64,000 nucleotides of DNA from a virus: IMG/VR virus record IMGVR_UViG_3300000651_000004, positions 14,596 to 78,595 of that record. One strand, given 5' to 3'. The position numbers and the translations under genes were made by a program. The notes below the pieces were generated by a model. That model did no database searches. It was not told where the DNA came from and was given only the letters and a program-made list of their open reading frames with translations. Shown here piece after piece: positions 1-4,471 of this stretch; the stretch's first letter is position 1, and the number at the start of each line of letters is the position of its first letter.

Positions 1-613
1 GCGCTCGAGCGCGACCCCCTGGAAGATGGCGGTCTTGGAACTTTCAAGCGGGTCAATGGTTTTTGACACGCTTTACCATCCGGTCAAGCGCGCGAACGAT
101 GAAGGATACGAAGAGCACGAGCTTGGGGAATGGATATCCCCTTGCTTTTGCAAGGTGAAAGACAGCTTCCCCTTGCGTTGCGAGTTCCAGTTCAACCTCT
201 GGTACGAGGCGGGCTTGAGGCTCTTTCTCTCCGTATCCAGCGGCAACCTGGTCCAGTTCTGGGTATATTTCGACGGCCAGATTTACCGGCCGCCTTTCGG
301 GAACATCTTCGAGTCTTCTTACCAGGTCTGTTTCGGTCACAACGAGACAGCTCTGGTCAAGGCGCTGGACAACCGTTATAGCGACTCGGGCAAGCTGTCG
401 CGTATTCTGACTATGCTCTCATCGAGCCCCTGGAACGCGGACACCTTCATTCAGGGCGATATCGCGATCCTGAACGATCTGGTCCGTTTTGACAGCACAA
501 AAGCGGAGCTGCCGATGCTGCCGCCTTTAAACCCGCACAGAATCAAGGAATGCCACGTGGCCGCCAACAAGGATCTGGCGGACATCACCGGACGCATTGT
601 CACCTACGTATGA
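1..613 (+). CDS. Prokaryotic E2-like protein (Prok-E2 family D / PRTRC protein B-like), probably 5'-truncated by the window edge
   Basis: Motif IYRPPFGNIFESSYQVCFG resembles the LYxxPxxNxxxxGxVCxG catalytic-Cys signature of Prok-E2_D. The frame is open from base 2 (first ATG at 26). It lies upstream of ThiF and JAB genes. Confidence 0.6.
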   Translation, partial: RSSATPWKMAVLELSSGSMVFDTLYHPVKRANDEGYEEHELGEWISPCFCKVKDSFPLRCEFQFNLWYEAGLRLFLSVSSGNLVQFWVYFDGQIYRPPFGNIFESSYQVCFGHNETALVKALDNRYSDSGKLSRILTMLSSSPWNADTFIQGDIAILNDLVRFDSTKAELPMLPPLNPHRIKECHVAANKDLADITGRIVTYV

Positions 614-960
614 TCGAACCAAATAAAGATAATTGGCACCATGAAGTGGTTGAGAAAGCCAGGGTTAACCATAGCGCTGCCCTGGCTGACTTGATCAAGA
701 TTCACCGGGCCAACCTGCTGGCTCAGTTTACCAGCAGAGTAAGGAACAGGTACGACCATTTCGATGTCTTCACCTTGGTTAACATCCTGGCCCAAGGCTA
801 CCTGGACCCCTACGCGCGCGACACGTTGAACGCGCTCGACCCGCAATTAGAAGAGCAATTGAGCCAGATTTATAACCTGACGCAATCCGCCCTGGCCAAG
901 ATCTCCAAACTACAAGCGCCGGATCTCGGCAAATTGAAAGAACTACTTAACTATCTATGA
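610..960 (+). CDS. Hypothetical helical protein (116 aa) in the Ub-like operon
   Basis: ATG at 610 overlaps the upstream TGA (ATGA), and its stop overlaps the ThiF start (ATGA). Confidence 0.7.
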   Translation: MIEPNKDNWHHEVVEKARVNHSAALADLIKIHRANLLAQFTSRVRNRYDHFDVFTLVNILAQGYLDPYARDTLNALDPQLEEQLSQIYNLTQSALAKISKLQAPDLGKLKELLNYL

Positions 961-1613
961 GCCATTTAATTGTTGGAGCCGGGGGCACCGCCAGCTGGCT
1001 GGTGCCCTTGCTCAAGCGGATGGTCAAGCCTCCGGCCAATATCACGGTTTGTGACGGCGACATCCTGGAAGCCAGGAACATTGATCGCCAGCTCTTTGAC
1101 CAAACCTTTATCGGCTGGAACAAAGCGGAAGCCCTGGCTGAACTGCATATCATAAACTATGACCCGAATTATCTATCGCGGGATTGGGACCTTTATTCTA
1201 TCGAAGGACCGTGGAGTTGTCTCTGGTGTTGCGCGGACAATCATGTTGCTCGCGCTTTATGCCTGGACCTGGTTGACGAAGACAAGGCGCTAATGACCAT
1301 CATCGGGGGCAACGAGTACAACGATAGCGAGGCATACCCCTATTTAAAAGCCTGGAAAGGCAGCAGTGCCGATCCCAGGCTTTATTATCCGGAGCTGCTT
1401 AACGATCAAAGCAACGATCCGACCAACCCCAGTTGCCAGGGATTACCGCAGGAACAAAATCGCCAGCTGGCTCTGGCCAATTACTTAAGCGCCGGATTCA
1501 TGATGCACTTGTATTGGTTCATCACCAATCATGGCCACGAGGTGGAGAAGATCAATTGGCCGATGCGCCACATGTGCAATTTTGCGGCCTTTAACACCAA
1601 ACCAATGCGATGA
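957..1613 (+). CDS. ThiF/E1-like adenylyltransferase (PRTRC ThiF-like)
   Basis: LIVGAGGTAS nucleotide-binding loop, DGDxLExxNxxRQxF, GxNKA, CADNxxAR, and YPELL...PSC (candidate catalytic Cys) followed by QxxxAN. Confidence 0.9.
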   Translation: MSHLIVGAGGTASWLVPLLKRMVKPPANITVCDGDILEARNIDRQLFDQTFIGWNKAEALAELHIINYDPNYLSRDWDLYSIEGPWSCLWCCADNHVARALCLDLVDEDKALMTIIGGNEYNDSEAYPYLKAWKGSSADPRLYYPELLNDQSNDPTNPSCQGLPQEQNRQLALANYLSAGFMMHLYWFITNHGHEVEKINWPMRHMCNFAAFNTKPMR

Positions 1614-2566
1614 AATTTCAGCTATATATCAACGCAGTAAATCACCATGTTAAAATCATCACTGAAGGGCAACAATCAGGGGCTGACTTTGTTCTGCTCG
1701 CCGAGCGCGATCCGGAAGAAGAGATCCAGTTCACATCCGATTGTGCTTATTACAACCCATTGCTTAAGCGTATCGACGCCCTGCAGCTCTTTCTGGTCAA
1801 TGGTACTGGCGATCTGATGGGCTATCATTCCGGTCGCCCTCCGGGATCGCTTAACAAAGCTGAGCGAAAGATCTTGTGGCGCGGCTGGTTCAAGTTAATT
1901 CCGCGCAACTTGAGCGCCCTGGACGTGCCGCCCTTGATCTTTGCTCAGATGCAGCGGTTTCCCAAAATGAAAGGGGTAATCAGCCAGGCAATAAGAACTC
2001 AGATGGGATTGCGGGTGCCGGATGAACTGGAAGCGCCTGATATCGACGCCTGGATGGCTTGGATCATGGCGCAACGGATGGCGATCACGCCGGTAATCAA
2101 AAGCTGCTTCGAACAGCTTCGAACTAGTCCATCATTCCTGGTTTTTCCTGTTCCGGTCAAAACCTTCTTTTTGACCGGGGTTGAGCCTGAGCCGCAGTTT
2201 GAGATTCGAGTACGGCGATGTGAGATTCGCACCGTTAAACAACTTCAACGCCAGCTGTTCGAATCTTACGAGCACCGTCTTACGGTGCCCAAGTCGTTGC
2301 TGGACGCCGGCAATGACGCTCTCCTGGCTCATGCTAAAAAAGAGTGGGGCGATGACTGGGACCAGATTCAGCAGTATTCGACCGGATCAGACTTAATCCA
2401 GGCTGATAAAGCCGAATCGATTGAAACCGGACTGATCATTTTCGTTAAAGGCCCCAACGATTCGAGCTTCCAATTCTGGAGTGATCCGGCTGGCCGGCCG
2501 GATTCGATTCACGATTTATTCGCGAAAGTTATCGAGGAACAAGAACACAATGCAAGAGTACGTTGA
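1610..2566 (+). CDS. Hypothetical protein (318 aa) between E1 and JAB
   Basis: Long ORF, ATGA-coupled to ThiF. No motif recognised. Confidence 0.7.
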   Translation: MKFQLYINAVNHHVKIITEGQQSGADFVLLAERDPEEEIQFTSDCAYYNPLLKRIDALQLFLVNGTGDLMGYHSGRPPGSLNKAERKILWRGWFKLIPRNLSALDVPPLIFAQMQRFPKMKGVISQAIRTQMGLRVPDELEAPDIDAWMAWIMAQRMAITPVIKSCFEQLRTSPSFLVFPVPVKTFFLTGVEPEPQFEIRVRRCEIRTVKQLQRQLFESYEHRLTVPKSLLDAGNDALLAHAKKEWGDDWDQIQQYSTGSDLIQADKAESIETGLIIFVKGPNDSSFQFWSDPAGRPDSIHDLFAKVIEEQEHNARVR

Positions 2567-3644
2567 CCCATTCATTACTAGTGACGGGAAATTTTATACC
2601 CGTTTCGAGAGTCCGCTGGTCACGGGCTATATGCCCGTTCCGATCCCGAAGGGTGACCCCACCCTTCGCTGGCACGGGCCGAAGATCCATTTGGAACAAA
2701 GCTGGTGGCCGGCTTTGAAATTCATGGAAGACCATGCCGCGCATGAAGTGATTTTGCGGCTCTTCATGCTGGCTGATAAATCTGAGATCATCATTTTTCC
2801 GCTTAGCCAGATCTATGGCACCGGCATGACTGTGAAAGAAGAGATAAGCCAGGAAGAGCGCGAAACCTGGGCTAAAGCCGGCCTGATTGAGGCCGGCACG
2901 GTACATAGCCATTGTGATGGAGGCGCGTTTCAATCCTCGACTGATAAGAACGATGAGGAAGCCCGTGACGGGCTCCATCTTACAGTCGGCAAACTGAAAA
3001 GCGATCAATTCGATATTCATTCGAGGATGACCTGGACGATTCCAGGAGAAGAGAAAGACGGAAAAGTTATCCGGGCATCCATCCGAACCAGCCAGGCAAC
3101 GAACCTGGCCGATTGGTTTATCTTTCCTGATCACGTACTGGCTTTCATCGCGGCAGAACCGGAGCTGGAACGGGATGTGATTAAATACGTGCTGACCAAG
3201 CCTCCGCATGTGCATGTCGTCTATCCTCCAGAGTGGAAAGAGAAACTGATTCGCCGCCAGACTATGGTTACCAGCACCAGCCCAGTCGCTGGTTCGCATA
3301 ACATGTGGAGTGCGCCTTATCAGCAGCAGCCTCTCTCGATGGCTGACGATATCCCAATCTATAAAAAAAAAGAAAACAGCCAAAACCAGGACCCAAGATT
3401 GCTCGACGCAAAAGAAAACCTCATCTGGGATCTCTGGAGTGAGGTGATGGGTATAATCGCTGACAGTGCCCAGCTTCGTGAGTACCAGGTCAGTGTCAGC
3501 GATTTTGAACCCATTAAACGGCCGCAGCTCTTCAAATGCGTACCGGAAGCAGTAGAGGTATGGGCATCAATCGCCGGGATGCTGGCCGCCAACAACGTTT
3601 CTGAAGCAGAGTTTTTTCAAAACTTTGACGACAGGCTTACTTGA
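2550..3644 (+). CDS. JAB/MPN+ (JAMM) metallo-isopeptidase, PRTRC protein A-like
   Basis: N-terminal Glu (HEV) plus GTVHSHCDGGAFQSSTDKNDE, matching HxH-x7-S-xx-D, then GLHLTVG. ATG at 2550 chosen as the start. Confidence 0.88.
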   Translation: MQEYVDPFITSDGKFYTRFESPLVTGYMPVPIPKGDPTLRWHGPKIHLEQSWWPALKFMEDHAAHEVILRLFMLADKSEIIIFPLSQIYGTGMTVKEEISQEERETWAKAGLIEAGTVHSHCDGGAFQSSTDKNDEEARDGLHLTVGKLKSDQFDIHSRMTWTIPGEEKDGKVIRASIRTSQATNLADWFIFPDHVLAFIAAEPELERDVIKYVLTKPPHVHVVYPPEWKEKLIRRQTMVTSTSPVAGSHNMWSAPYQQQPLSMADDIPIYKKKENSQNQDPRLLDAKENLIWDLWSEVMGIIADSAQLREYQVSVSDFEPIKRPQLFKCVPEAVEVWASIAGMLAANNVSEAEFFQNFDDRLT

Positions 3645-3883
3645 ACCATGAACATGAAGACATACGTAACGAGGGTTGCGTGGACTCGATCCAGGATGAC
3701 GCCGAGTTCCTTGTTTGGATGTACGAGGGGCATTACGGCTTCATCAATCCCCTGGATCAGTTCGAGTTTGATGATGAGCTTTCACGAGCTCATTTTGAGA
3801 CCCCTTGGCCATTCTACTTCATACTGGCTAAGTGGCGTCCGGTCGCCTTCGACCTGTGGCGCAGATTGAGACGGTCACGCTGA
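3641..3883 (+). CDS. Hypothetical protein (80 aa)
   Basis: TTG start overlapping the JAB stop; acidic and aromatic composition. Confidence 0.55.
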   Translation: MNHEHEDIRNEGCVDSIQDDAEFLVWMYEGHYGFINPLDQFEFDDELSRAHFETPWPFYFILAKWRPVAFDLWRRLRRSR

Positions 3884-4471
3884 CCGTTTCCAACACCAAT
3901 CGGGGAACACCATTTTCTTGGTGATTCCCTTTTTTAACGCTTCCAGGGGCAGATGGATCTGTGCCTGGTTAGAGCATCCACACACCTGACAGGCTCCCAG
4001 CCGCTCATCGAAAGGAGATCTCTTATGACCGATAAGTTCTAAAGTATATTTGATTAAGCCACGGCATGGCTGGCAGCCTTCAATTGGGATATTCTTAGGA
4101 CATGAAGCGCAAATTTCCGCCCTGGTATCGGCCTCAGCCTGGGATACAAAAGCTCTCTTCTTCATCCATGCCGCCGCGACCTGGAGAAAATGTCGTACAT
4201 CTTCCAGGTCAACCGAGTGCTCTGAAGAGGGCGATTGGCAAGGTCGGCAGAATATTGCGCGCGCGTTAGGGGGTAACTTAGTGCAGATCTGAGTCTGGAT
4301 TTCATTATCCAGATCCGGCCCAGCCATAAAGGAATTGATTTGCCGGTGCTTGCGCACTTTCTCGCGCAAATCATAATAATCGCCTCCACGCAATTCGAGG
4401 CCTGAATCTTCCTGGTAGTACTTCCAACCGCCAGGAGGAACGTGGAGCAAATTCGAAAGACATTGAAACAT
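3875..4471 (-). CDS. Cys-rich, probably Zn-binding phage protein
   Basis: CxxC pairs (CRPC, CASC, CQPC, CQVCGC) and a C-terminal WCW. Confidence 0.75.
   Translation of the reverse strand: MFQCLSNLLHVPPGGWKYYQEDSGLELRGGDYYDLREKVRKHRQINSFMAGPDLDNEIQTQICTKLPPNARAIFCRPCQSPSSEHSVDLEDVRHFLQVAAAWMKKRAFVSQAEADTRAEICASCPKNIPIEGCQPCRGLIKYTLELIGHKRSPFDERLGACQVCGCSNQAQIHLPLEALKKGITKKMVFPDWCWKRSA

Follow-up and report, generated by a model that had tools for sequence, protein, structure and literature searches.

A putative phage-encoded ubiquitin-like conjugation and deconjugation cassette distantly related to the plasmid-borne PRTRC core

Organisation of the locus

At the beginning of a 64,000-nucleotide stretch of viral DNA (hereafter the window), taken from the IMG/VR virus record IMGVR_UViG_3300000651_000004, lies a cassette of genes for a candidate ubiquitin-like conjugation pathway. 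The window corresponds to bases 14596-78595 of one 78,595-bp contig, a virus record rated 100% complete by CheckV; L001 designates the first 18.5 kb of this contig, and subtracting 14595 from an L001 coordinate gives the corresponding window coordinate. DNA near-identical to the contig was found in soil metagenome runs only, and the virus carrying the cassette is an uncultured soil phage. Five plus-strand open reading frames (ORFs) of the cassette are present in the ORF list, encoding an E2-like protein, a protein X, an E1-like enzyme, a protein Y and a JAB peptidase, and with the gene of a ubiquitin-like protein (Ubl) located upstream, the full gene order in this phage is Ubl-E2-X-E1-Y-JAB, as follows.

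L001:13661-13924 (934 to 671 nt upstream of window base 1), plus strand: Ubl gene, 87 aa, assigned from its fold model
Window 1..613, plus strand: E2-like gene, 3' part (203 of 262 codons); full gene L001:14420-15208, starting 176 nt upstream of the window
Window 610..960, plus strand: gene X, 116 aa, of no family, coupled to E2 and E1
Window 957..1613, plus strand: minimal ThiF/E1-like adenylating enzyme, 218 aa, assigned from Pfam ThiF and profile comparison
Window 1610..2566, plus strand: gene Y, 318 aa, of no family, coupled to E1
Window 2550..3644, plus strand: JAB/JAMM metallopeptidase of 364 aa with the ATG at 2550 as start (a GTG start at 2481 would give 387 aa), assigned from its JAMM motif and profile comparison
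Window 3641..3883, plus strand: possible sixth coupled ORF, Z, 80 aa, TTG start, of uncertain status

The five cassette genes are translationally coupled. ATGA overlaps are found at the E2/X, X/E1 and E1/Y junctions, the Y and JAB genes share 17 nt, a GAGGA precedes the JAB ATG at window 2550, and the JAB stop shares a TTGA overlap with the start of ORF Z. A preliminary description of this DNA had reported five overlapping, coupled genes on the plus strand, and the ORF list and the junctions place all five where it had put them. The first of them, given as window 1-613, is real but cut by the window edge, the true gene encoding 262 aa from L001:14420.

The cassette proteins were scanned against Pfam, NCBIfam, PHROGs and PADLOC. 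As the E2 and JAB proteins fall below the Pfam cut-offs and the ThiF protein barely passes, the family assignments presented below rest on profile work and not on direct Pfam matches.

The E1-like enzyme and its occurrence in viral contigs

The E1-like enzyme exhibits the residues of an adenylating enzyme, including a GAGGTAS nucleotide loop, D33, D35, R44, K56, D94-N95, R99 and Cys160 within an NPSC motif. It passes the Pfam ThiF cut-off narrowly (31.3 versus 28.1 bits) and matches the NCBIfam model TIGR03736 (PRTRC_ThiF) over residues 4-192 with E 7e-8; since this match scores 32 bits against a cut-off of 144.75, the phage enzyme is a relative and not an equivalog of the ThiF protein of the plasmid-borne ParB-related, ThiF-related cassette (PRTRC). 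The ThiF equivalog models as well score far below their cut-offs. All 84 homologues retrieved have a ThiF domain and, in an alignment of 32 sequences reaching down to 32% identity, the nucleotide loop, D33, D35, N41, R44, K56, D94-N95, R99, N119-E120 and Cys160 are invariant.

Scanning IMG/VR with a broad E1 alignment returned 200 viral contigs with a related E1, 80 of which were fetched and all their ORFs searched with local profiles. The E2 accompanies the E1 in 72 of these 80 loci, the JAB does so in 75 and the Ubl in 54; in 52, the genes run Ubl-E2-E1-JAB on one strand. Across 81 E1 sequences, the GxGG, DxD, R, K and DN...R positions are kept in 78-81 and C160 in 75, the remainder being gaps.

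The ubiquitin-like protein

The gene of the 87-aa Ubl lies beyond the window edge, ~500 nt upstream of the E2 gene. Its homologues comprise 10 database proteins and one in L002, a 4.9-kb locus that was the single one returned by a metagenome scan, where the Ubl gene lies directly 5' of the E2 gene; between L002 and this phage, the Ubl is 69% identical and the E2 48%. The AlphaFold2 model of the Ubl (pLDDT, the predicted local distance difference test, 71 overall and ~80 in the core) shows the beta-grasp order of elements, that is a beta-beta-alpha-beta-beta core, followed by a disordered, flexible C-terminal tail. When this model was compared to the PDB with Foldseek, human ubiquitin, Caldiarchaeum ubiquitin, SAMP1, a Bacteroides ubiquitin-like protein and MoaD came on top, with E 2e-4 to 1e-3, probability 1.00 for the top 50 matches and template modelling (TM) scores of 0.6-0.72. 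The Ubl profile run against PDB sequences gave weak, chance-level matches only (E 0.16 or worse).

Regarding its C-terminus, the Ubl core comprises 72 aa and ends with LQA[RK]AA[TV]KA, a segment invariant among close homologues, which in this phage is followed by a 15-aa tail. Most close homologues terminate at KA, others adding 1, 5, 6 or 26 unrelated residues. In a larger set of 53 distinct phage sequences, the core ends in Lys-Ala 46 times, in Lys-Gly 4 times and in Lys-Asn/Gln 3 times; 29 of them stop at this point and 24 carry unrelated tails of 1-30 aa. Moreover, five of the 53 are head-to-tail di-Ubls with the same terminal motif on each repeat. The corresponding genes (L008:5129-5569, L012:5138-5578, L009:5166-5636, L010:5167-5637 and L046:4598-5053) encode repeats ending in ...ANSKA (...HDKG in L046), resembling polyubiquitin precursors. 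Variable tails together with di-Ubls form the pattern expected of precursors trimmed by a linked peptidase. A C-terminal Ala has a precedent, as the CD-NTases of type II CBASS (anti-phage signalling based on cyclic oligonucleotides) have a conserved Gly or Ala at the C-terminus, and conjugation persists in a G432A mutant (PMC10449767).

Modelling two E1 chains with residues 1-72 of the Ubl gave an ipSAE of 0.81, versus 0.01 for the best of three controls; of 80 solved complexes, 58 reach this mark, as do 2 of 110 mismatched pairs. At least 95% of contacts recur between the runs, the partner pLDDT is at least 89, and Ubl residues 66-72 contact E1 residues 7, 9-12, 91-96, 99 and 117-125. In this model, which is supportive, the Ubl tail is thus predicted to sit in the E1 adenylation site, formed by the nucleotide loop and the Asp-Asn/Arg motifs. 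Complexes of like kind, MoeB-MoaD, ThiF-ThiS and E1-ubiquitin, have been solved, and the pass may therefore reflect likeness to them and is not proof of binding.

The E2-like protein

The E2-like protein contains 262 aa, has 22 close homologues of 250-270 aa and carries the catalytic motif GQIYRPPFGN(160)IF-x6-C(169)FG. Within the close family, GQIYRPP(F/L)GN-F is invariant and a Cys nine residues past the Asn nearly so; among 74 phage homologues, N160 and C169 are both kept in 73, the counts for N160, C169 and G171 ranging from 71 to 73. A profile search of 1.8 billion representatives retrieved 37 proteins, and the distant full-length relatives retain an invariant Asn, Cys and Gly with N-x-D in the consensus PLPNIYxDGxxCxG, which resembles the HPN...C signature of ubiquitin-conjugating (UBC) enzymes. 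Pfam Prok-E2_D (PF14460) is matched by 13 of 34 distant relatives (best E 3e-6) and by 10 of 19 close members, and TIGR03737 (PRTRC_B) by two of the 34, no other family recurring; this phage's own protein remains below the Pfam cut-off (E 0.087-0.12).

The AlphaFold model of the E2-like protein is confident (pLDDT 88) and its order of secondary structures, a beta-meander, a loop with the PPFGN...C motif and helices, is compatible with the UBC fold. Against BFVD, it returned uncharacterised phage proteins only, and it also weakly matches chain 9eav_D, BubB, of a Bub complex (Z 4.2, VIA-align), at a level shared with unrelated folds. The E2 profile gave weak, chance-level matches only (E 0.16 or worse) with PDB sequences. 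Since the fold search gave no clear UBC match, the identity of the E2 rests on sequence profiles and on the catalytic motif.

ThiF-family enzymes and beta-grasp partners also act in cells in sulfur-carrier or other non-protein acyl-adenylate pathways (PMC1779556), and the cassette might serve a pathway of the ThiS/MoaD/TtuB or MccB type, in which the E1 would turn the Ubl C-terminus into a thiocarboxylate or another adduct, for example for nucleic-acid or cofactor modification. JAB proteins also accompany sulfur-carrier operons (PMC1779556), and in related phages the cassette lies beside replication genes, two points consistent with such a role. We nevertheless regard it as very unlikely: an E2-like protein with invariant Cys and Asn accompanies the E1 in 72 of the 80 loci, the tag ends in Lys-Ala and not in the Gly-Gly of sulfur carriers, di-Ubl precursors suit a protein tag, and neither a rhodanese nor a cysteine desulfurase was detected by Pfam among the cassette genes, 10 ORFs within the 5' 11 kb of the contig and 8 ORFs located immediately upstream of E2.

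The JAB peptidase

In the JAB protein, an alpha+beta region at the N-terminus precedes the JAMM core, which is followed by ~200 further residues that PRTRC protein A lacks. Its JAMM motif reads AHE(66)V ... H119-S-H121-CDGGAFQ-S129-ST-D132, that is E...HxH-x7-S-xx-D; of the 76 phage homologues, 75-76 retain these E, H, H, S and D positions. Direct matches to Prok-JAB (E 0.0037) and PRTRC_A (TIGR03735, E 0.0079) are below the cut-offs, and no match was found among PDB sequences. The nearest ESM Atlas clusters are viral, with proteins of ~380 aa, one of them having Prok-JAB on 11% of its members.

Hosts possess Ubl-based defences on which JAB peptidases exert negative control (PMC11601596), which raises the possibility that the phage JAB strips host conjugates of the Bil or CBASS type, or that the E1 and E2 soak up or misdirect a host Ubl, the phage Ubl being secondary. 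The extra ~170-200 C-terminal residues of the phage JABs, absent from PRTRC protein A (~205-213 aa), would be in line with a counter-defence decoy or eraser of this sort. However, the phage keeps a highly conserved Ubl of its own (69% identity where the E2 shows 48%), a Ubl is present in 54 of the 80 loci and the E1 is modelled binding the phage Ubl specifically, making this explanation improbable.

Genomic setting of related cassettes

In the related viral contigs, the cassette is followed on its 3' side, in 22-27 loci each, by genes for DNA polymerase A (27 loci), Pam3 gp33-like and gp34-like proteins and an AEP primase. Because replication genes follow it in these contigs, the cassette belongs to a replication/early block, a position that suggests action during takeover or replication. 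The distances are short, the replication genes, including the AEP/PriCT primase, lying within 2-6 kb past the cassette, for instance at L013:9213-11063, L007:9641-12479 and in 20-odd other loci. Nine loci (L060, L065, L066, L073-L076, L078 and L083) have the order E2-JAB-E1 and yielded no match to the Ubl profile; possibly they are intermediate between the plasmid and phage versions.

IMG/VR scans with a single E1 sequence, the close E2 alignment or the Ubl alignment returned nothing. Among 50,697 deposited phages, tblastn with the E1 found distant jumbo-phage ThiFs only, without an annotated cassette, and tblastn with E2, JAB and Y had no match; these deposited-phage searches thus revealed no cultured phage with the cassette. 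A literature search of incomplete coverage found no paper on phage-encoded E1-E2-JAB-Ubl cassettes.

The same chemistry could also act as a phage-carried defence, that is superinfection exclusion through Bil-like tagging of the structural proteins of competing phages. The characterised bacterial Ubl systems, Bil and type II CBASS, are anti-phage defences (10.1101/2023.09.04.556158; PMC10097602), and the fast evolution of X and Y would fit an arms race. Yet the cassette occupies a fixed place beside replication genes in many viral contigs and not a variable accessory spot, and PADLOC gives domain-level matches of the E1 to CBASS E1-E2 models only. We hence consider such a defensive use unlikely.

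Homology to the PRTRC core

Within the PRTRC system (NCBIfam TIGR03734-03742), the core, covered by TIGR03735-03738, consists of protein A (a JAB), ThiF, protein B (a Prok-E2_D E2) and protein C (a Ubl). We compared the phage families with those of five PRTRC cassettes by profile-profile alignment with hhalign, the cross-controls being negative. The phage E1 aligned with PRTRC ThiF at 99.9% (E 4e-31, 192 columns), the JAB with protein A at 97.1% (E 4.8e-11, 153 columns) and the E2 with protein B at 95.7% (E 8.9e-9, 36 active-site columns). In addition, the best plasmid tblastn matches of the E1 are annotated as 'PRTRC system ThiF family protein'. Judged from these sequence comparisons, the cassette appears to be a distant relative of the plasmid-borne PRTRC core. 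Its PRTRC kin are most likely the type 6d operons of Iyer, Burroughs and Aravind (2006). These are described from Cupriavidus/Ralstonia and others as holding genes for a Ubl, a helical protein that diverges rapidly, an E2 whose Cys is conserved, an E1 and a JAB bearing an additional domain at its N-terminus (PMC1779556); this description fits PRTRC and resembles the phage operon.

Accompanying genes and side observations

The two genes intercalated in the cassette stand apart. X has no Pfam, NCBIfam or PADLOC family and its sole library match is weak, to phrog_13899 (E 0.0083), a PHROGs family of unknown function. An ORF mostly of ~105-125 aa lies between E2 and E1 in 60 related loci, its sequences falling into many unrelated clusters, and X shows no detectable similarity to the positional ORF of L002; X is thus a fast-evolving positional gene. 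Y matched nothing in Pfam, NCBIfam, PHROGs and PADLOC, nor in the ESM Atlas. In ~34 related loci, E1 and JAB are separated by a gene of 187-470 aa, and in 27 others they overlap or abut; no homology was detected between Y and these positional genes. For Z, neither a family in Pfam, NCBIfam, PHROGs or PADLOC nor relatives in related loci were found. Neither phmmer iteration nor profile hidden Markov models nor hhalign connected X, Y and Z with the positional genes found in distant loci or with E and F of PRTRC.

Between the Ubl gene and the rest of the cassette, directly 3' of the former, a strong terminator-like hairpin is found at L001:13947-13985, with an 11-bp stem including 8 G-C pairs, followed by TTTTTATTTTT. 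Such a hairpin may allow the tag to be made in excess over the enzymes; the number of terminator-like sites in the region is not above that in shuffles. Two small Lys/Arg-rich ORFs, L001:13986-14147 (53 aa) and L001:14144-14332 (62 aa), separate the Ubl and E2 genes; they have no family, and L002, with its Ubl immediately before the E2, lacks them. Upstream of the Ubl gene, a 100-aa ORF of no family (L001:13231-13533) is conserved at L002:2645-2947 (49% identity, E 1e-30) and could be a member of the module. Further upstream, the early region encodes a DUF6197 protein (L001:12047-12355, E 1.9e-8) and a superfamily-2 helicase (L001:2441-3775, Helicase_C, E 4.9e-8).

On the opposite side, a 198-aa ORF on the minus strand (window 3875-4471) converges on the cassette. 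Its paired cysteines, CRPC, CASC, CQPC and CQVCGC, suggest a zinc-binding protein. We considered it as a conserved E3-like partner and found no support, since the gene belongs to no family and none of the 80 related loci has a relative of it.

Proposed function, mechanism and significance

Taken as a whole, the cassette probably constitutes a phage-encoded pathway for conjugation and deconjugation of a ubiquitin-like protein, distantly related to the PRTRC core. We infer conjugation from the observed gene content, the conservation of catalytic residues, the homology, the beta-grasp fold model and the supportive E1-Ubl model; every chemical step, the cleavage site and the targets are proposals built upon them. 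In the pathway that we propose, the JAB would trim the 87-aa Ubl precursor just past Lys71-Ala72, shedding the 15-aa tail. A homodimer of the E1 would then bind the beta-grasp body, thread the ...AATKA end into its nucleotide site and adenylate the Ala72 carboxylate, before Cys160 takes the Ubl as a thioester and hands it over to Cys169 of the E2. There, Asn160 would play the role of the Asn of the UBC 'HPN' motif, and the Ubl would be moved to lysines of phage or host proteins. The fast-evolving X and Y might act as adaptors, regulators or targets, and the JAB would also reverse the modification.

The preliminary description had likewise read the locus as a phage-borne operon for Ubl conjugation and deconjugation, which might serve either the phage's own tagging or counter-defence; the upstream Ubl, the E1-Ubl model, the PRTRC homology and the completeness of the virus record (100%) all support the reading as such an operon. 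The E2, E1 (with the NPSC Cys) and JAMM motifs that it quoted are real and conserved far beyond chance across 74-81 viral loci. Its family labels fared unevenly: ThiF passes Pfam, whereas Prok-E2_D and Prok-JAB are below the cut-offs on the phage's own proteins and draw their support from profiles. It saw no modifier ending in Gly and supposed that one might lie upstream; a beta-grasp Ubl is indeed encoded there (L001:13661-13924), though its core ends in Lys-Ala. The lack of a UBC fold in the first ORF, together with that of any Ubl nearby or in homologous loci, was to count against its reading; the fold search gave no clear UBC match, and a Ubl was found both upstream and in 54 of the 80 loci. 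As for the relatives that it named, PRTRC, listed first, is the closest one, and not CBASS or Bil.

Several points weigh against a conjugation pathway akin to PRTRC. A C-terminus other than Gly is unusual in E1 chemistry. The hhalign match between the E2 and PRTRC_B spans only 36 columns, and no sequence homology was detected between the Ubl and PRTRC protein C, including by hhalign. In Foldseek, the E2 model retrieved nothing from the PDB at E <= 0.001; in VIA-align, the E2 enzymes 2f4w, 1yrv, 1zdn and 3bzh (113-118 residues aligned) scored Z 4.0-4.4, tied with unrelated folds. For X and Y, no relatives could be detected beyond close kin, neither a target nor an E3 or substrate adaptor was identified for the cassette, and a literature search of incomplete coverage found no tested PRTRC function.

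A bolder proposal, which we put forward tentatively and at somewhat less than even chances, is that a large, hitherto undescribed group of tailed phages (at least 200 IMG/VR contigs) run their own full Ubl cascade from the early/replication block, with a tag activated at a C-terminal Ala and the hyper-variable X and Y as specificity factors steering the tag towards host or phage proteins. It would then be the first Ubl conjugation system of a virus of bacteria, and its tag a natural one of ubiquitin type without a terminal glycine. Bacterial ubiquitin-type conjugation has so far been characterised as host anti-phage defence (CBASS and Bil) or left uncharacterised on plasmids (PRTRC/6d). If the proposed function is true, the presence in viruses of such a conserved cascade, with its catalytic residues intact, would imply that phages tag proteins too, for takeover, replication control or counter-defence. 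The Lys-Ala terminus would constitute a natural test of the tolerance of E1 and E2 enzymes for a non-glycine C-terminus, with a predicted mass-spectrometry signature consisting of a single Ala remnant on target lysines after trypsin. Moreover, the phage cassette would give a handle on PRTRC function, and its small parts (a 72-aa tag and a 218-aa E1) are attractive for biochemical and structural work.

Comparison with known systems

With PRTRC, the phage cassette shares the four core parts (Ubl, E2, E1 and JAB) and the E2 active-site motif (PPYFNTWDHGRICIG versus PPFGNIFESSYQVCFG). The Ubl termini are comparable as well, protein C ending in ...AAGAKG followed by AYAQI, ADA or long tails and the phage Ubl in ...RAATKA+YWVLG..., and the nine viral loci mentioned above keep the PRTRC order E2-JAB-E1 (B-A-ThiF), which in the cassette of pMOL28 (Cupriavidus metallidurans CH34) reads ParB-E-C-F-B-A-ThiF. 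The two nonetheless differ in several respects. The cassette is carried by a phage and not by plasmids or integrative and conjugative elements (ICEs), its order is Ubl-E2-X-E1-Y-JAB, its E1 is shorter (218 versus 267 aa) and its JAB longer (364 aa versus ~205-213), protein A being devoid of a C-terminal extension. The phage Ubl ends in Lys-Ala in 46 of 53 sequences and not in Lys-Gly, and the conserved C-terminal Gly is thus lacking. PRTRC cassettes comprise a ParB, whereas ParB_N (PF02195) has no match in the whole 78,595-bp genome, 11 of 14 control genomes being matched. Regarding PRTRC D, E and F, NCBIfam gave no match for X, Y, Z or the four small ORFs just upstream of E2, and the positional X and Y families showed no match to E and F in hhalign. 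All NCBIfam scores of the phage proteins are far below the equivalog cut-offs. The lack of ParB, the undetected D, E and F, the C-terminal Ala and these scores argue together against strict PRTRC membership.

Bil systems (BilABCD, types I and II) also have a separate Ubl, a Cys E2, a JAB and an E1, with a JAB that pre-processes a Ubl bearing a short non-conserved C-terminal tail and, in some Bil Ubls, tandem beta-grasp domains (10.1101/2023.09.26.559546). In contrast to the single 218-aa adenylation domain of the phage E1, the Bil E1 is a large IAD-AAD-CYS enzyme with a Prok-E2_C-annotated N-terminal domain; the Gly of Bil Ubls is universally conserved, whereas the phage Ubl ends in Ala, and Bil is a host defence tagging the phage tail fibre. 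No PADLOC or Pfam match to Bil components was obtained among the cassette proteins.

In type II CBASS, the Cap2 E1 similarly operates through Cys thioesters and the Cap3 JAB reverses the reaction, the conjugated C-terminus being Gly or Ala (PMC10449767). The N-terminal 60 residues of the phage E1 (Rossmann) match PADLOC CBASS E1-E2 models at the domain level, the other cassette genes having no such match. E2 and E1 are fused in Cap2, whereas they are separate genes with X between them in the phage, and CBASS conjugates a CD-NTase and not a beta-grasp tag; no CD-NTase or effector gene was seen in the cassette, as judged for the CD-NTase from a Pfam scan of the cassette genes.

Bub systems (formerly 6E/DUF6527) likewise possess a diverged bacterial Ubl, E1 and E2 set, with a JAB in type I. 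Unlike the phage E1 and E2, which have an invariant Cys at both catalytic positions, they use Tyr/Ser oxyesters together with the serine protease BubE (PMC11601596), and no Pfam match to DUF6527 was found among the cassette proteins. The ThiS/ThiF and MoaD/MoeB sulfur carriers have a Gly-Gly terminus, no E2 and linked genes for sulfur transfer or cofactors, whereas the phage tag ends in Lys-Ala and 72 of 80 loci contain an E2-like gene. Finally, a phage-encoded pairing of beta-grasp and JAB proteins exists in the lambda-like tail proteins I (Ubl) and K (JAB+NlpC) (PMC1779556); while these belong to a tail module without E1 and E2, the cassette described here lies in an early/replication block and comprises a full activation cascade.

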